Shown: positions 15,011 to 53,274 of the stretch, piece after piece
Numbering within the stretch: position 1 is the stretch's first letter
How the letters are laid out: each line of letters begins with the position of its first letter
Origin: Thermodesulfobacteriota bacterium
GTDB lineage: Bacteria; Desulfobacterota_D; UBA1144; Nemesobacterales; CSP1-2
Direction of reading: 5' to 3'
Length of the DNA stretch: 64,000 nt
NCBI GenBank assembly: GCA_036397855.1
Contig: DASWID010000128.1
Coordinates: forward strand, 10,747 to 74,746
Notes under the pieces: generated by a model
The model's database searches: none
Seen by the model: the letters and a program-made list of their open reading frames with translations, nothing else
What the model was told of the DNA's origin: nothing
Made by a program: the position numbers and the translations under genes

Positions 15011-15505
15011 AACGGTGATGACTAGAATTGGGGATAGTTTTTGAAATTACTCAGTAAGAATTGATATATATTCCTCCTTCTATAATTAATCCCAAACGCA
15101 AATTCCTTCAAGTGTAAATAAAACGTAGCTTTATTAATTGCTCGAAATCTGGCTAACCTCATTTTAGCATGACCCCAAAATCCTTCAATCCGATTGATAT
15201 CAAAGACTTTATGGGAAAACTGTCGGGTTGTCTAAGAATGGTGGTAAAACTTTTGGGGCTCAGAGTAGATCAACCGGTAAAAGCGGGGACTTTAAACCGA
15301 AGTTGAATAAAGCTTTCTCAGCTATTTGGAAATGTAAAACATCACCGCGTACAGTTTTGTTGTAAGATTATCGTACATCTCATATCCTGCTCAATTCTTG
15401 ACTAGTTCCTAACATGCTGAAATTGTTTGGAAAGATTGCTCTTAACATTGGCATGTGCTTTGCAGCGTAAAGGTGTATATAGTTTGTAAAAAGGGATAAC
15501 TCAAG

Positions 15506-16648
15506 ATGAGGACGGAGAACGATTTATTCCGATATGGCGATGACATAGGGCCGCTAAAGATCATCCACGTCTATGAGCCTTCGATTCAGTTGAAGGCGAT
15601 CTTGGTTGTTGACAACGTGGCTAGAGGACCTTCAATCGGTGGCCTACGCCTGGCGCCTGATGTAAGCACCGAGGAGTGTTACCGTCTAGCACGAGCAATG
15701 ACCTTGAAGAATGCCGCTGCTGATCTTCATCACGGGGGCGGCAAATCGGTAATGTTTGGAGATCCGAATATGCCAAAGGCCGAGAAAGAAGAGCTCATAC
15801 GCTGTCTTGCAAAGGCATTGCGCAATGATGAGGAATACATATTCGGACCAGATATGGGGACAGACGAAGAATGCATGGCATGGGTGAATGACGAGATCGG
15901 GAGAGCCGTAGGCTTGCCCCGTGAGATTGGTGGTATACCGCTTGATGAAATAGGTGCAACCGGCTGGGGTCTCATGCATTCCACTGAGGTAGCCCTGGAA
16001 TTCTGCGAGTTAAAATTAGAAGATGCTCGTTTCGCTGTTCAGGGATTTGGTGCAGTGGGCAAACATTCTGCGCGCTTTCTCGCTGAGAGGGGTGCGGTAA
16101 TGGTGGCGGCCGCAGACTCAAAAGGTGCCATTCATAACCCAGATGGTATTGATGTAAATGAATTGATTGAGCTCAAGGCTGAGGGGGTCAGTGTATCGAA
16201 TTATTCACGTGGGTATCCAATTGACCGGGATGCCATTATCGATGTAGAATGCGATGTCTGGATCCCTGCCGCGCGCCCGGATGCTATTAACGAGAACAAT
16301 GTAGAACGCCTCAAGACAAAGCTAGTGATAGCAGGAGCAAATATACCGATAACACTTGGCGCCGAAAAGGTTCTAGCGGAGAAGGACATAGTCTGCGTGC
16401 CCGATTTCATAGCCAACGCTGGGGGGGTGATCTGTGCGGCAATGGAGTACAGGGGTGCGAGTGAGTCGGAGGCGTTCAGTGTCATTGAAGAGAAGTTACG
16501 GCGAAATACTAGACAGGTTTTGGAATATGCTGCAAATAACAGTATATTGCCGCGACAAGCAGCTTTGGAACTGGCGTTGAAAAGAGTTAAGAAGGCGATG
16601 AGTTTCCGGCGTTTTTCATCCTTTTCATCCGCACCCAATTTTGTATAG
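15506..16648 (+). CDS. Glu/Leu/Phe/Val-family amino-acid dehydrogenase (length suggests a Leu/Val/Phe-DH type)
   Basis: GGGKSVMFGDP catalytic-lysine motif and a Rossmann GFGAVG motif; 380 aa. Confidence 0.8.
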   Translation: MRTENDLFRYGDDIGPLKIIHVYEPSIQLKAILVVDNVARGPSIGGLRLAPDVSTEECYRLARAMTLKNAAADLHHGGGKSVMFGDPNMPKAEKEELIRCLAKALRNDEEYIFGPDMGTDEECMAWVNDEIGRAVGLPREIGGIPLDEIGATGWGLMHSTEVALEFCELKLEDARFAVQGFGAVGKHSARFLAERGAVMVAAADSKGAIHNPDGIDVNELIELKAEGVSVSNYSRGYPIDRDAIIDVECDVWIPAARPDAINENNVERLKTKLVIAGANIPITLGAEKVLAEKDIVCVPDFIANAGGVICAAMEYRGASESEAFSVIEEKLRRNTRQVLEYAANNSILPRQAALELALKRVKKAMSFRRFSSFSSAPNFV

Positions 16649-16666
16649 GCAGCAAGGAAAAAGACT

Positions 16667-17035
16667 ATGTTTCAGATTCGATTTCACGGGAGAGGCGGAC
16701 AGGGCATAAAGACGGCTAGTCGTGTTTTGAGCACGGCCTTTTTTCTTGAGGGTTTTGAAGTTCAGGATGCACCGCTCTACGGCGCAGAGAGGCGTGGTGC
16801 CCCCATCTTTGCATACGTTCGCGCTTCAAGACACCCCATTAACGAGCGTGGTATAATTCAGCGCCCCGACCTGGTTATAGTTGCGGATGACACCTTGGTG
16901 CCTGTGCCCGCTGCTGGTGTACTGAGGGGTATTAGCAATAGAACTGTCTTATTGATCAGCAGTCATGAGTCGCCGGAAACCTGGAGTGACCGTCTGAATA
17001 TTCAATCGAAGATATTGATTCTGCCTGGAACGTAA
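16667..17035 (+). CDS. 2-oxoacid:ferredoxin oxidoreductase gamma subunit, N-terminal two-thirds, ending at an in-frame TAA inside the conserved domain
   Basis: MFQIRFHGRGGQGIKTAS...GAERRGAPIFAYVRAS is canonical POR/VOR gamma. The TAA at 17033-17035 falls where homologs continue, and the downstream sequence in the same frame continues the gamma homology. Confidence 0.7.
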   Translation: MFQIRFHGRGGQGIKTASRVLSTAFFLEGFEVQDAPLYGAERRGAPIFAYVRASRHPINERGIIQRPDLVIVADDTLVPVPAAGVLRGISNRTVLLISSHESPETWSDRLNIQSKILILPGT

Positions 17036-17098
17036 AAGGTAGAAGCCCGCGCGGAACAGCCGTTCATTGGAGCGGCCTGCGCGGGAGCTGCGGCTTCT

Positions 17099-17593
17099 TT
17101 GTTAGGGGTAATTTCGCGTGACTCTTTGGCAGAGGCTATCCGTGCCGAACTTGCGACTCTAGGAGCAGAGATCGTCGATAAAAATCTTGAGAGGGCAGAA
17201 TCAGCCTTCCAACTGATGCGTGATCATTCGGGTTGCGTAATGGAGGGCGAAGATGTTTCAGCGGCTAATTATAACCCTCCAGATTGGGTGGATTTGCCAT
17301 TTGAAGAGGCAAGTAAATCTGCTCCGGCGATCCATGCAGGTCTTACCAGTGTGGAGGTCAAAACGGGCTTGTGGCGCACGCTGCGCCCCGTGATCGATTA
17401 CGACCGCTGTAAGCGCTGCTGGTGGGTTTGCAGCACATTCTGTCCGGATAGTGCCATCCTGGTTACTGCGGGTGGCAGCCCACAGATCGATTATGATCAT
17501 TGTAAGGGCTGCATGATATGCGTGGCTCAGTGTCCATCACATGCAATCGAAGCGATTTGGGAACACGAGGTAAAGGAACATCTAGGGGGCTAA
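17099..17593 (+). CDS. gamma-subunit C-terminal segment fused in-frame to the delta (2x[4Fe-4S] ferredoxin) subunit; no ATG start (track start is TTG)
   Basis: Same frame as 16667-17035. The N-terminus (SLLGVISRDSLAEAIRAEL) matches gamma C-terminal conservation. The C-terminus has two CxxCxxCxxxCP ferredoxin motifs (CKRCWWVCSTFCP, CKGCMICVAQCP). Confidence 0.7.
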   Translation: MLGVISRDSLAEAIRAELATLGAEIVDKNLERAESAFQLMRDHSGCVMEGEDVSAANYNPPDWVDLPFEEASKSAPAIHAGLTSVEVKTGLWRTLRPVIDYDRCKRCWWVCSTFCPDSAILVTAGGSPQIDYDHCKGCMICVAQCPSHAIEAIWEHEVKEHLGG

Positions 17594-17597
17594 AATC

Positions 17598-18845
17598 ATG
17601 ACTCGTACATTGCTCACAGGCAACGGGGCCGCAGCGTGGGGGGGGCGTTTGGCAAGGGTAGACTATATACCTGCATTCCCAATCACACCGCAGACAGAGA
17701 TAATTGAGACCCTTTCCAACTGGATAGACAGCGGGGAAATGGCTGGTCGCCTTGTGATGCTCGAATCCGAACACTCCATGCTTACAGCTGCCGGTGGTGC
17801 GGCTGCCACCGGTGTTCGGGTGTTAAGCGCGACATCGAGTCAGGGATTGTTATATGCTATGGAAATGGTTTATACAGTTGCCGGTTGGCGAACACCTTTT
17901 GTGCTGATAAATGTATCCCGTGGCTTGTCTTCACCAATCACCCTTGAACCAGACCATAACGACGTATTGGCGGCGCGCGACTCTGGGTTTCTGCAGATTC
18001 ATTGTGCTACCTGTCAGGAAGTTTTGGACACTACCCTGATGGCTTTCCGCCTGGCAGAAGATAAACGAGTACGCTTACCCGTCATCGTTAATATGGATGG
18101 ATTCTATCTTTCATTTACCCGTGAGCCTGTGGAATTACCGGAAGCCGGTGCTGTGGATGCTTTTCTGCCACCTTTTGATCCTGAGAACATTGTATTTCGT
18201 GCCAGTACGCCTACGAGTCAGGCAGTCGCTGTACTAGGAGGTTCGCCTTACTCTTATTTTCGTTATGAAATGCACCTTGCCGCCTTGAATGCCCTTGAAG
18301 TGTACGACGAAATTTCAAAGGCATTTGCGCAACAATTCGGAAGGAAACATGATTCGATCGAGTCTTATCAATCTGAGGATGCTGATATTTTGTTTGTTAT
18401 GATGGATTCCTTCGCTACCAAAGCGAAAGCCGCCATTGACCGGTTGCGAGACGCTGGAAAAGCAGTAGGGTTGTTACGTCCGCGACTGATACGTCCCTTC
18501 CCGGCGGAGCATATGCAGCGCTTGCTTGCTGGCAAAAGAGGTGTTGCTGTAATTGATCAGAACCTGTCTATTGGCAAAGGTGGAGTATTACATTCCGAGT
18601 TGGCATCTGTCCTCTATGGTCAGAAGGGAGCCCCACCAATACTGGCAAGTTTTATCGGTGGTCTGGGCGGTCGGGATATCTCTGCCGAAGAATTCTTTGA
18701 AATGGCGGAGGTAACACGCAGGGCAGTCGACTCAGGTAAAACGCCTCCACCCAGGTTGCTATATAACCGTGATGAACTCAGGGAGATCAGAAAATTGCAG
18801 GCGGTAGCCCACGTTGAGCGTCAAGAACTTGGAGAAAAACCATGA
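17598..18845 (+). CDS. 2-oxoacid:ferredoxin oxidoreductase alpha subunit
   Basis: Four-subunit POR/VOR alpha-type sequence of 415 aa; overlaps the beta gene start by 4 nt. Confidence 0.8.
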   Translation: MTRTLLTGNGAAAWGGRLARVDYIPAFPITPQTEIIETLSNWIDSGEMAGRLVMLESEHSMLTAAGGAAATGVRVLSATSSQGLLYAMEMVYTVAGWRTPFVLINVSRGLSSPITLEPDHNDVLAARDSGFLQIHCATCQEVLDTTLMAFRLAEDKRVRLPVIVNMDGFYLSFTREPVELPEAGAVDAFLPPFDPENIVFRASTPTSQAVAVLGGSPYSYFRYEMHLAALNALEVYDEISKAFAQQFGRKHDSIESYQSEDADILFVMMDSFATKAKAAIDRLRDAGKAVGLLRPRLIRPFPAEHMQRLLAGKRGVAVIDQNLSIGKGGVLHSELASVLYGQKGAPPILASFIGGLGGRDISAEEFFEMAEVTRRAVDSGKTPPPRLLYNRDELREIRKLQAVAHVERQELGEKP

Positions 18846-19783
18846 GCGAAACCGAAACTGCATTTAGACGGATGAAGGATTTGCCCTCCACACACCTGCT
18901 GGGTACTGGAACCCCTATGTGCGCCGGTTGCGGTGGGTTACAGGCGCTTCACGTGATCTATGACATCCTGGGTGGAAAGACTGTATTTGTAAATGCCGCA
19001 GGCTGCATGACACTACTATCCGTTTATCCATTCACACCGTTTAGGGGCTCCTGGCTATACACGTCTATGGCTTCTGCGCCCGCTGGAGCGCAGGGGATTC
19101 GTGATGCGTTGGATATTCTGTTGGAACAAAATCGTATTACGCCCGAAGAGGATCTGGATGTCGTGGTGCTGACAGGTGATGGTGCTGCCTATGGAATGGG
19201 ACTCTCTGCCACATCAGGCGCTATGGAACGGGATCTGGATTTTATTTACATCTGTTACGACAATGAGGGATATGGCAACACTGGGCAACAGTACTCTGGT
19301 GCAACACCGCATGCGGCAAGGACGGCAACAAGCAAAGGTCCCCGCGGTTTTGTCGGATACAAGAAGGACTTGTTTTCCATATGGGCTGCGCATAAGCCTG
19401 CCTACTTGGCAACTGTAATAGGCAGCGAGCCAGTTGACCTTGCGCGTAAAATTGAAAAGGTTAAGGACTTAAGAGGCCCTCGTATGATAATTACCCTTGC
19501 ACCTTGCCCAACAGGTTGGGATTTCGATCCGAGCGAGAGTATAGAGATTGGAAAGCTTGCTGTAAAAACAGGCGTGTGGCCTTTAAAAGAATACGTGAAT
19601 GGTAAAGTGGTACACACGAAAAAGCCCTATCCGAGAATACCTATTGAAGAGTATTTGAGGAGACAGGGGAGGTTTGCCCACCTGTTTAAACCAGAGCGAA
19701 ACGAGAGATTGCTCGCAGAGCTTCAGGCAAAGGTAGATGAGTATTGGGAAGACTTAGAGAGAAGCTCATTCGGTACCAGTTGA
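18842..19783 (+). CDS. 2-oxoacid:ferredoxin oxidoreductase beta subunit (TPP-binding)
   Basis: Cys cluster CAGCGG...C and TPP motif TGDGAAYGMG. Confidence 0.8.
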   Translation: MSETETAFRRMKDLPSTHLLGTGTPMCAGCGGLQALHVIYDILGGKTVFVNAAGCMTLLSVYPFTPFRGSWLYTSMASAPAGAQGIRDALDILLEQNRITPEEDLDVVVLTGDGAAYGMGLSATSGAMERDLDFIYICYDNEGYGNTGQQYSGATPHAARTATSKGPRGFVGYKKDLFSIWAAHKPAYLATVIGSEPVDLARKIEKVKDLRGPRMIITLAPCPTGWDFDPSESIEIGKLAVKTGVWPLKEYVNGKVVHTKKPYPRIPIEEYLRRQGRFAHLFKPERNERLLAELQAKVDEYWEDLERSSFGTS

Positions 19784-21531
19784 CAAAGGGGATTGCCAGA
19801 CAATTATCTACAACCCATATGACAGGTACGCTAAAAAGCTATTTCCATCGAGGCGGTCTTGAGCCGCTGCTCGGTGCCACCATCCCTGAGCATTTTGCAG
19901 ATGTGGTGAAACGATTTTCAGATCGAGAAGCAGTCGTCTCGATACTCCAGAATCAACGATTAACCTATGCACAGCTTGCAAACGCTGTAGATAACCTAGC
20001 GCGTGGGCTTTTGGGCATTGGTTTCAATAAAGGTGATCGAATTGGCATCTGGTCTACCAACAATATTGAATGGTTGTTGTTACAAATGGCTACCGCGAGC
20101 ATAGGTGCTATCCTGGTCAACATAAATCCGGCCAATCGTAGCCGAGAATTGGCCCATGCCCTTAAGCTTGCTAATGTGCAGGGTCTATTTCTGATCCCAA
20201 AATTTCGCACCAGTGATTACGTGTCCATGATTATAGAGCTTATCCCGGAACTTGAATCCAAGACTCCCGGGAAGTGGAAGAACGAGGATTTCCCAGCTAT
20301 GAGAAGTGTAGTTATTTACAACCCGGATGACGCCGATGGAACAGAGCGCCCATACGCCGGTTTTCTCACCTGGTGGGAAGTGCTTGCCGAGGGCGGAAAG
20401 GTAACAATTGAGAGGCTTCGGGCGGCGACAGAATTACTTGACCGCGACGACCCAATTAATATCCAGTATACATCGGGTACCACCGGTTTCCCCAAGGCTG
20501 TTGTCCTGACCCATCACAACATCCTTAATAATGCTTATTTCTCCTCTCTTGCGATGCATTTTACCGAGACTGACCGTCTCGTGGTACCCATTCCATTCTA
20601 TCATTGCTTTGGCATGGTACTTGCCAATTTGCTTTGTTTGTCTGTAGGCGGCTGCATCGTGATCCCCAGTGAGCATTTTGATGCGCTATCTGTACTCAGA
20701 GGGGTAGAACAGGAGAGGTGTACGGCCATACACGGGGTACCGACCATGTTCATCGCCGAACTGGAGGATCCCCAATTCAAAGAGTTTGATCTATCTAGCC
20801 TCAGAACTGGAATAATGGCGGGTGCCCCTTGCCAGCCGGCCCTTATGAAGCGTGTTATGGAGGATATGCATTGCAGTGAAATACTTATAGGTTATGGAGA
20901 AACCGAGGCTTCACCGATCACGCATTTAACCACACGTGATGATACATTAGAGCGGCGCACTGAGACCGTAGGTAGAAACTTGCCGCATCAGGAGGTCAAG
21001 GTGGTAGATCTTGATACTGGACGGACCCTGCCACTTGGTGAGGTTGGTGAGATCTGTTTCCGCGGGTACCACGTTATGCTCGGGTATTATGGAGATGAGG
21101 AATCAACCCGTAAAGCCATTGACGATCATGGTTGGCTGCATTCCGGTGATCTGGGTACACTGGATTCCGAGGGTTACGTGCAAATTACAGGAAGGTTGAA
21201 GGAAATGATTATTCGCGGGGGGGAAAATATCTATCCAAGAGAGATTGAAGACTATATCTTTACTCACCCAAAAGTGGCGGAAGTTGCTGTGTTTGGGGTG
21301 CCGGATGAATATTACGGCGAAGAGGTGATGGCATGGATTAAGCTACACGAGGGACAAACGGCAACCGAGAATGAACTGAGGGGATTTTGCAAGGGTAAGA
21401 TTGCTCACTTCAAGATACCTAAATATATCTGGTTTGTGGAGGAATTTCCCATGACAGTAACCGGTAAGCTCCAAAAGTTTCGCATGCGAGAAATCGCGAT
21501 GGAAAAACTGGAGAAACGGAAAATGAAATGA
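19744..21531 (+). CDS. AMP-forming acyl-CoA synthetase / fatty-acid CoA ligase
   Basis: AMP-binding signature YTSGTTGFPKAV and the GYGETE and GWLHSGDLG motifs. The true start is probably the ATG near 19819. Confidence 0.8.
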   Translation: MGRLREKLIRYQLTKGIARQLSTTHMTGTLKSYFHRGGLEPLLGATIPEHFADVVKRFSDREAVVSILQNQRLTYAQLANAVDNLARGLLGIGFNKGDRIGIWSTNNIEWLLLQMATASIGAILVNINPANRSRELAHALKLANVQGLFLIPKFRTSDYVSMIIELIPELESKTPGKWKNEDFPAMRSVVIYNPDDADGTERPYAGFLTWWEVLAEGGKVTIERLRAATELLDRDDPINIQYTSGTTGFPKAVVLTHHNILNNAYFSSLAMHFTETDRLVVPIPFYHCFGMVLANLLCLSVGGCIVIPSEHFDALSVLRGVEQERCTAIHGVPTMFIAELEDPQFKEFDLSSLRTGIMAGAPCQPALMKRVMEDMHCSEILIGYGETEASPITHLTTRDDTLERRTETVGRNLPHQEVKVVDLDTGRTLPLGEVGEICFRGYHVMLGYYGDEESTRKAIDDHGWLHSGDLGTLDSEGYVQITGRLKEMIIRGGENIYPREIEDYIFTHPKVAEVAVFGVPDEYYGEEVMAWIKLHEGQTATENELRGFCKGKIAHFKIPKYIWFVEEFPMTVTGKLQKFRMREIAMEKLEKRKMK

Positions 21532-52917: not shown

Positions 52918-53274
52918 GGGGGCGAAATGGCTTCGACGGGGAATGGGATAGCTTGAGCTGCATGTCGAGCTTCTGTTAACTCGTAAAACTGGCAGAGCAC
53001 GTAAAAGTGCCGAACCAATTAATGCACTCGCAGCCTAAATAGAGCTGTGACGTCTCTAAAAACCTCACCCGTTGGGTTTTTATGAGGCGCCGAATAGACG
53101 GGTTAGTTGGTTGTTGGTGCTTGAGACATAAACTGACGAAACAAATTCTCAAGCTGGAAGTGAAAATCCTGCCCATCGGAGATTTCACTTTGAGAATATA
53201 AGGCTGGGCTAAACATGTAGAAGCTGGGTGAAGCTCTTTCTCGGACCTGGGTTCGATTCCCAGCGCCTCCACCA
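52918..53274 (+). ncRNA. ssrA: transfer-messenger RNA (tmRNA, SsrA)
   Basis: 5' end GGGGGCGAAAUGGCUUCGACGGG; 3' tRNA-like end GGACCUGGGUUCGAUUCCCAGCGCCUCCACCA. The internal tag reading frame GCC GAA CCA ATT AAT GCA CTC GCA GCC TAA reads (A)AEPINALAA-stop. Positioned immediately downstream of smpB. Confidence 0.9.

Follow-up and report, generated by a model that had tools for sequence, protein, structure and literature searches.

An amino-acid dehydrogenase, a 2-oxoacid:ferredoxin oxidoreductase (OFOR) and an AMP-forming acyl-CoA ligase are encoded by a five-gene operon in the window, the whole 64-kb stretch of DNA analysed here (Table 1). The OFOR gene for a fused gamma-delta subunit, 308 codons in length, is interrupted at codon 123 by an in-frame TAA at 17033-17035. 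The ORFs on either side of the stop (16667-17035 and 17099-17593) lie 432 nt apart and share a common frame, as a sequence-only reading of this DNA had claimed and as coordinates and translation bear out. Gene callers and the NCBI annotation place two proteins at the interrupted locus, and the public protein records of this Thermodesulfobacteriota metagenome-assembled genome (MAG) list a 122-aa product (HEX9666910.1) and a 164-aa product (HEX9666911.1). Another 185 codons, with conserved residues among them, follow the stop in open frame, and the downstream ORF closes with a normal TAA 4 nt ahead of the alpha ATG. The 21 codons between the two ORFs include residues that are invariant in an alignment of relatives (G135, C138, A139, G140, A141 and A143), and without readthrough their product would be missing. 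No start-type codon occurs 3' of the stop before the TTG, 21 codons away. The sequence-only reading had found neither an ATG nor a ribosome-binding site for a separate downstream gene; the first part stands, the nearest ATG lying 60 codons on, but 'no RBS' was too strong because the TTG at 17099 is preceded, at a distance of 11 nt, by an SD-like GGGAG (17083-17087).

Table 1. Coordinates of the operon genes and of the features around the premature stop.
Feature	Position	Strand	Remarks
Compositional island	15500..21500		About 47-53% GC, genome about 36-40%; extent exactly that of the five-gene operon
Glu/Leu/Phe/Val-family (ELFV) amino-acid dehydrogenase	15506..16648	+	Leading gene in the island
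5' part of the fused OFOR gamma-delta gene	16667..17035	+	122 codons, then the premature TAA; first two-thirds or so of the gamma (domain III / POR) fold only
Premature ochre codon TAA	17033..17035	+	GAA (Glu123) in all intact conspecific alleles and the outgroup; derived G>T transversion
Block of five linked derived substitutions, TAA haplotype	17033..17089	+	Polarised on L015
Stretch between the ORFs	17036..17098	+	21 in-frame codons, KVEARAEQPFIGAACAGAAAS; homologous to conserved gamma residues; no ATG, GTG or TTG
GC-rich interrupted hairpin	17046..17085	+	Found by folding; begins 11 nt 3' of the stop; equally stable in the GAA allele
SD-like GGGAG	17083..17087	+	Read from the sequence; buried in the 3' arm of the hairpin; putative, the only candidate for reinitiation
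Downstream ORF, TTG start	17099..17593	+	164 codons: last 40 or so aa of gamma, linker, 2x[4Fe-4S] delta domain
OFOR alpha subunit, intact	17598..18845	+	POR_N and PFOR_II matches
OFOR beta (TPP-binding) subunit, intact	18842..19783	+	TPP_enzyme_C match
AMP-forming fatty-acid/acyl-CoA ligase	19744..21531	+	PRK12583 family, above the curated cut-off

The interrupted subunit and its operon

With the stop read through, the 308-aa conceptual product gives one continuous match to Pfam POR (PF01558) over residues 10-182, covering profile positions 1-173 of 173. Taken alone, the N-terminal fragment covers positions 1-96 of this profile and the C-terminal fragment positions 122-173. The PorC/KorC family TIGR02175 is matched over residues 1-184 (126.7 bits against a cut-off of 81.1), only when the stop is read through, and PorD/KorD (TIGR02179) over residues 226-299 (87.4 bits, cut-off 60.05). 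These matches confirm the earlier proposal that gamma homology continues for some 60 aa past the stop and then runs into a two-cluster ferredoxin domain, and that the TAA falls inside the conserved gamma domain, the POR match spanning it at residue 123. The N-terminal GxGGQG motif is present as GRGGQG at residues 8-13, and the delta domain carries two CxxCxxCxxxCP [4Fe-4S] motifs, CKRCWWVCSTFCP and CKGCMICVAQCP. As expected of an OFOR, genes for the alpha and the TPP-binding beta subunits adjoin the gamma-delta gene; the uninterrupted frame of a gamma(-delta) subunit is absent, with the TAA at codon 123.

The closest solved relatives are the gamma subunit (9bt4_E) and delta subunit (9bt4_G) of a PFOR, PorC (2raa) and the fused delta subunit of oxalate oxidoreductase (5c4i_B). 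The last of these, from Moorella thermoacetica (5c4i chain B; NF045790), has the same gamma(POR)-linker-2x[4Fe-4S] architecture, with alpha and beta genes adjoining. However, the conceptual product scores only 82 bits against the equivalog NF045790, for which the cut-off is 230, and the gene in the window is interrupted; its best family matches are to the generic pyruvate/2-ketoisovalerate subfamilies. The domains are also homologous to those of the four-subunit POR/VOR enzymes (9bt4 chains E and G), in which delta is a polypeptide of its own. There the natural split falls between the domains, whereas the break here falls at about residue 123 of a gamma domain of about 185 residues.

The operon stands at 50% GC in a genome of 38% GC, and the same GC island is found in the relative L015. 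Homologues at 70-75% identity are scattered among Gammaproteobacteria, Nitrospinota, Spirochaetia and an archaeon. Because of this GC island and the spread of homologues across phyla the operon looks accessory, and the presence in it of an amino-acid dehydrogenase and an AMP-forming acyl-CoA ligase suggests an accessory pathway. It is probably a horizontally acquired pathway connecting a carboxylic acid, its acyl-CoA, a 2-oxoacid and an amino acid, in either direction, and its loss is therefore plausibly tolerated. The description of this OFOR as a central catabolic enzyme, given in the earlier reading, is doubtful for an operon that forms a compositionally foreign island. No second OFOR copy that might serve as a compensating paralogue was found in the 64-kb window.

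The stop codon is genuine and derived

The identical TAA is present in seven further contigs from seven other samples, produced by three pipelines (Logan, ENA/MEGAHIT and JGI), in addition to the MAG from which the window is taken. Alleles were counted by exact-protein look-ups, which found the 122-aa product encoded on eight contigs; five of the 122-aa contigs were fetched (SRR9005073, SRR10376053, ERZ27256953, JGI 3300033407 and JGI 3300031965). Two more variants with the same stop were found in JGI 3300048613 and ERZ27254861. All of the TAA contigs share the identical stretch ...GGAACGTAAAAGGTAGAAGCCCGC... around the stop. The T at 17033 is genuine, because three assembly pipelines agree on it. 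An artefact of sequencing or assembly, one of the explanations that had been offered at the outset, could be entertained for a metagenome-assembled genome in which a single base difference makes the stop, but with the same base and the same linked block recovered in seven other contigs, from different samples and assemblers, it is extremely unlikely and we reject it. A Logan contig (L007, from SRR12682491) terminates exactly at 17032, as expected of a de Bruijn bubble at a single-nucleotide polymorphism, and both alleles are probably present within that sample. Neighbouring accessions (ERZ27254795, ERZ27254861 and ERZ27256953; SRR12682491 and SRR12684493) suggest that some of the samples share a site. 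The literature yielded nothing under the run and sample accessions. When the JGI metagenome collection was scanned with a degenerate 41-nt pattern that matches either allele, there were no hits; the collection therefore does not contain these samples.

In contrast to the window, eight conspecific contigs with 95.7-99% nucleotide identity (L001, L012, L013, L014, L095, L096, L097 and L098) have GAA at this codon, and so does an outgroup contig that is 85% identical (L015), such that GAA is found in 9/9 relatives read as DNA. Because the intact conspecific contigs and the outgroup all have GAA, the stop is a derived G>T change that converted a glutamate codon to TAA. A protein search returned 5588 significant homologues, and the 120 listed are all fused, uninterrupted proteins of 296-322 aa. 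Among 20 aligned relatives the residue at the stop position is glutamate in 15, the others having D, K, G, A and G. The gene is free of in-frame stops in 79 of 80 species-representative genomes, the exception (L024) being broken at a different codon; in-frame stops in this gene are thus uncommon but not unheard of (1/80). The possibility of a recent nonsense mutation, raised in the earlier reading, is supported by the GAA of the eight conspecifics and the outgroup and by listed homologues that are full-length, at about 308 aa. Separately initiated gamma and delta genes, which would have told against programmed readthrough, were not seen in the relatives; the gene is instead continuous and fused, and this too argues against programmed readthrough, by another route. 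Gene calls of 288 aa and 368 aa in L096-L098 were considered as further disruptions, but the frames are intact and the calls reflect only the gene caller's choice of start codon.

The stop belongs to a block of five changes within 57 nt that is fully linked in every contig examined. Apart from 17033 G>T, which makes the stop, three of the changes are synonymous (17041 G>A, 17050 T>C and 17089 C>T) and one, 17046 A>C, replaces Asp127, the state in nearly all homologues, with alanine. The TAA belongs to a single strain-level haplotype in an uncultured Thermodesulfobacteriota population, where the intact allele coexists with it. Over 4-6 kb, identity to the window is 99.87-100% for TAA-type contigs, the GAA-type ones being about 1.2% different, and the TAA allele is present in about half of the conspecific contigs. 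Three contigs look mosaic: in L008 the TAA block has GAA-type polymorphisms upstream of it, in L009 it gives way to GAA-type sequence and, further on, to sequence of greater divergence, and L012 has a GAA block within TAA-type flanks. These are either true recombinants or assembly chimeras. Clusters of polymorphisms are frequent between the haplotypes (16208/16214/16217, 16305/16306, 18406/18409/18416 and 20333-20343), so the cluster at the stop is not unique; they point to short recombination tracts or to a general clustering of changes. A quasipalindrome template switch was considered as a single source of the cluster at the stop and rejected: the changes in the 5' arm make for better pairing, but the patch falls short of a perfect, unbroken copy of the 3' arm's complement.

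No additional disabling mutation was found in the downstream ORF, alpha or beta in any TAA contig. On the TAA lineage gamma-delta has 2-3 non-synonymous changes (one unpolarised) and 4 synonymous ones; alpha has 3 and 4, and beta has 0 and 2. These are too few substitutions to inform on purifying selection downstream of the stop, and at such small counts there is no non-synonymous excess. The absence of further decay counts against a null allele, yet it would be equally expected if the mutation is very young, and a very young mutation would fit because only about 1.2% separates the haplotypes. Also counting against it, the allele is more common, and occurs on more backgrounds (the apparent mosaics L008 and L009), than a strongly deleterious one should, unless the gene is dispensable or the mosaics are chimeric.

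A stable hairpin downstream of the stop

A GC-rich imperfect inverted repeat just 3' of the stop had been pointed out in the sequence-only reading, and on folding this region gives the hairpin at 17046-17085. Its minimum free energy (MFE) is -33.1 kcal/mol, with a z-score of about -2.3; an exact-seed repeat finder did not report it. No 65-nt local fold elsewhere in the 6-kb operon is more stable: the hairpin ranks 4th among 1192 windows, and the three better ones overlap it. It exceeds the homologous segment in 70 other species (-24.7 +/- 5.7 kcal/mol) in stability by about 1.5 SD. Its stability is the same whether or not the stop is present. The TAA and GAA alleles have MFEs of -33.1 and -33.4 kcal/mol over 76 nt, and of -41.4 and -40.9 kcal/mol over 90 nt. 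A fold that might stimulate readthrough, for which the earlier reading had proposed a check, does exist, but since it is equally stable in the intact, sense-codon allele it pre-dates the stop and did not evolve as a stop-specific readthrough signal.

Four of the linked substitutions bear on this fold. Positions 17041 and 17089 pair with one another in the outer stem, where a G-C pair has become A-U, and the fold gains 1.6-1.9 kcal/mol in stability from each of the changes at 17046 and 17050. When 4-5 substitutions are placed at random, about 6 kcal/mol of stability is lost; in the TAA haplotype the net effect is -0.5 kcal/mol if the stop change is counted (p ~0.06) and -1.9 kcal/mol if it is left out (p ~0.03). 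The comparison hints weakly that the fold, whether in RNA or in DNA, matters or shapes mutation, and is not evidence for recoding. The non-random look of the hairpin changes (p ~0.03-0.06) is counted against a plain nonsense mutation. The region was also considered as an intragenic intrinsic terminator and this was rejected, with only weak consensus matches at 17077-17093 and a total of 9 against 6.0 +/- 2.8 in shuffled sequences, which is within expectation.

Interpretation of the interrupted allele

The stop is real, derived, limited to one haplotype block and positioned inside a conserved domain. We consider it likely that it represents a genuine recent nonsense mutation that has left a null or strongly hypomorphic allele of the gamma-delta OFOR gene. 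The best reading is of an ordinary segregating knock-out mutation, with programmed recoding unsupported. Under this reading ribosomes would end at codon 123 and release a 122-aa gamma fragment without the last third of domain III, which would be unable to form the domain. Reinitiation at TTG 17099, which would be weak, might at best yield a delta-containing fragment in which domain III is incomplete, with 22 conserved residues missing, six of them invariant. About 560 nt would be left untranslated, uncoupling translation from transcription, and polarity may also lower the expression of alpha and beta. Judged from the truncation in domain III and the lost invariant residues, the enzyme would be null or strongly hypomorphic in TAA strains. 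Such a loss could be tolerated because the dehydrogenase-OFOR-ligase operon appears to be accessory and horizontally acquired.

UAA is the stop codon least prone to readthrough. Selenocysteine (Sec) recoding needs UGA with a SECIS hairpin, pyrrolysine (Pyl) recoding needs UAG, and the A1 protein of phage Q-beta is made by readthrough of UGA. The site shares with these systems an in-frame stop, a stable hairpin close behind it and an open, conserved frame downstream, but differs from them in that the codon is UAA, is not conserved and is followed by a hairpin that is also present in sense alleles, with no recoding machinery seen. Functional readthrough, in which a near-cognate or an ochre suppressor tRNA decodes the UAA, possibly aided by the hairpin, and full-length gamma-delta is made, could draw on the 185 conserved codons after the stop, on the operon's strongest local fold beginning 11 nt past it, on linked substitutions that maintain this fold (the 17041/17089 pair, and the stabilising changes at 17046 and 17050), on a residue 123 that tolerates E, D, K, G and A in homologues, and on the allele being common. 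Against these, the stop is confined to one haplotype and is not conserved, the hairpin is as stable in the GAA allele and so did not evolve for the stop, and TAA ends ordinary genes in the window, where no tRNA gene was found, only a tmRNA. Nor is a UAA with A as the next base known as a leaky context. Low-level translation through nonsense pseudogenes, documented in Salmonella, also speaks for readthrough, but there it is low and predominantly affects UAG codons with a neighbouring C (Feng et al. 2022, PMC9122581). A conserved stop, a stimulatory structure specific to the allele and a leaky codon and context, which mark recoding sites, are all lacking, and programmed readthrough, which the sequence-only reading had listed among its options, is not supported; functional readthrough is judged improbable. 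A related suggestion is that the TAA allele is not null, the pre-existing hairpin, with its covarying 17041/17089 pair and its strengthening changes at 17046 and 17050, promoting appreciable UAA readthrough or reinitiation; it would be quite surprising if this were so, and the data lend it no support. Bypassing of the T4 gene-60 type, or frameshifting, was considered and rejected, as the homology runs on in one frame directly across the stop and there is no matching landing codon.

It is very unlikely that the locus is instead a functional split gene, in which an active enzyme is built from alpha, beta, the 122-aa N-fragment and a C-fragment reinitiated at TTG 17099 or AUU 17066. Gamma and delta are indeed separate polypeptides in the classical four-subunit enzymes (9bt4 chains E and G), which makes a delta-containing product on its own conceivable, GGGAG precedes the TTG by 11 nt, and gene callers and NCBI annotate two proteins. 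However, the break is within domain III and not at the gamma/delta boundary, initiation at the TTG leaves out 22 residues, of which six are invariant, the SD-like motif is tied up in the hairpin and its spacing is long, and no split occurs at this point in the listed homologues or in the 80 species-representative loci. A change of genetic code, with TAA reassigned as a sense codon, has nothing in its favour but the in-frame TAA itself, and its probability is practically negligible: TAA ends 11 of the 34 long ORFs in the window and ends this same gene where homologues also end, the gene is the only one split by a stop in 64 kb, and strains that are 99% identical have GAA at the site.

The nonsense mutation that we prefer gives the locus a close counterpart in the bacterial nonsense pseudogenes, or 'pseudo-pseudogenes' (PMC9122581), with which it shares a single derived in-frame stop, intact alleles in close relatives and the absence of other lesions; here an intact allele is found in conspecifics and the lesion is independently supported. 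As in those genes leaky expression is possible, and is expected to be low. The two differ in that the codon here is UAA-A and is known from metagenome assemblies alone, whereas readthrough there is mainly at UAG with an adjacent C. The site is thus real but ordinary, another instance of nonsense polymorphism.

For this organism, the public record lists two proteins (HEX9666910.1 and HEX9666911.1) for what is one interrupted gene, and metabolic reconstructions of the MAG should not count the OFOR as functional without evidence. If readthrough proved true, structure-assisted UAA readthrough would be unusual for bacteria; and if the TAA allele is not null, a common 'broken' haplotype would be a down-tuned functional expression variant, and bacterial structure-assisted ochre readthrough would be maintained in a wild population. 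As an ordinary nonsense polymorphism, the locus provides a clean, multiply sampled knock-out allele of an accessory redox operon beside an intact allele in a natural population, and the TAA allele could be used to mark strains or to put ideas on the dynamics of gene loss to the test.

The hairpin beside the premature stop

Several substitutions linked to the premature TAA in the oxidoreductase (OFOR) gamma-delta gene fall in the GC-rich hairpin 3' of it. Positions 17041 and 17089 form a covarying pair in the outer stem (17039-17042 with 17088-17091), changing from G-C to A-U together with the stop, and two further stop-linked changes, at 17046 and 17050, make the main stem more stable. Substitutions placed at random would weaken the fold (p about 0.03-0.06 for the observed set). 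Among the local folds of the operon this hairpin is the most stable, in TAA and GAA alleles alike.

A homologous gamma-delta gene on L024 (6001-6912), from the unrelated Gammaproteobacteria MAG MFD09779.bin.2.64, carries an independent in-frame stop as assembled. There the stop replaces a Trp of relatives (...ALAA*DLMQ...); the contig names suggest a long-read assembly.

Mosaic contigs and contig ends

Differences between the two main haplotypes, TAA-type and GAA-type, are grouped in tight clusters (Table), and several contigs, L008, L009, L012 and L002, are mosaics of the two. Together these suggest either that short tracts often recombine within the population or that the assemblies contain chimeras. 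Other contigs end at polymorphic positions: L007 (SRR12682491) stops at window position 17032, one base short of the G/T polymorphism, and L001 and L014 both begin directly after the SNP at 16645. Such ends are consistent with assembly-graph bubbles, with both alleles present within one sample.

Annotation and genomic setting of the operon

The NCBI record gives the interrupted gene as two proteins and not as a single pseudogene. It lists the alpha subunit (HEX9666912.1) at 398 aa, versus 415 aa from the ORF and relatives. With its listed TTG start, the acyl-CoA ligase ORF shares its first 40 nt with the end of the beta gene; because gene callers picked later starts on related contigs, giving 583- and 570-aa products, this TTG is a candidate start only. 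No tRNA genes were found across the 64-kb window.

Features of the window discussed in the text
Feature	Position	Strand	Detail
Five-gene operon	15500-21500		amino-acid dehydrogenase, OFOR gamma-delta/alpha/beta, acyl-CoA ligase
Gamma-delta gene	16667-17593		HEX9666910.1 (122 aa), HEX9666911.1 (164 aa)
Alpha subunit gene	17598-18845
Beta/ligase overlap	19744-19783
Difference clusters	16208-16217, 16305-16306, 18406-18416, 20333-20343, 20420-20443
tmRNA gene	52918-53274	+	tag peptide AEPINALAA

The operon has a GC content of 47-53%, against 36-40% in its flanks, and the edges of this GC island are sharp and match the operon limits. The same island is present in the relative L015. The five-gene island is probably a horizontally acquired accessory pathway.
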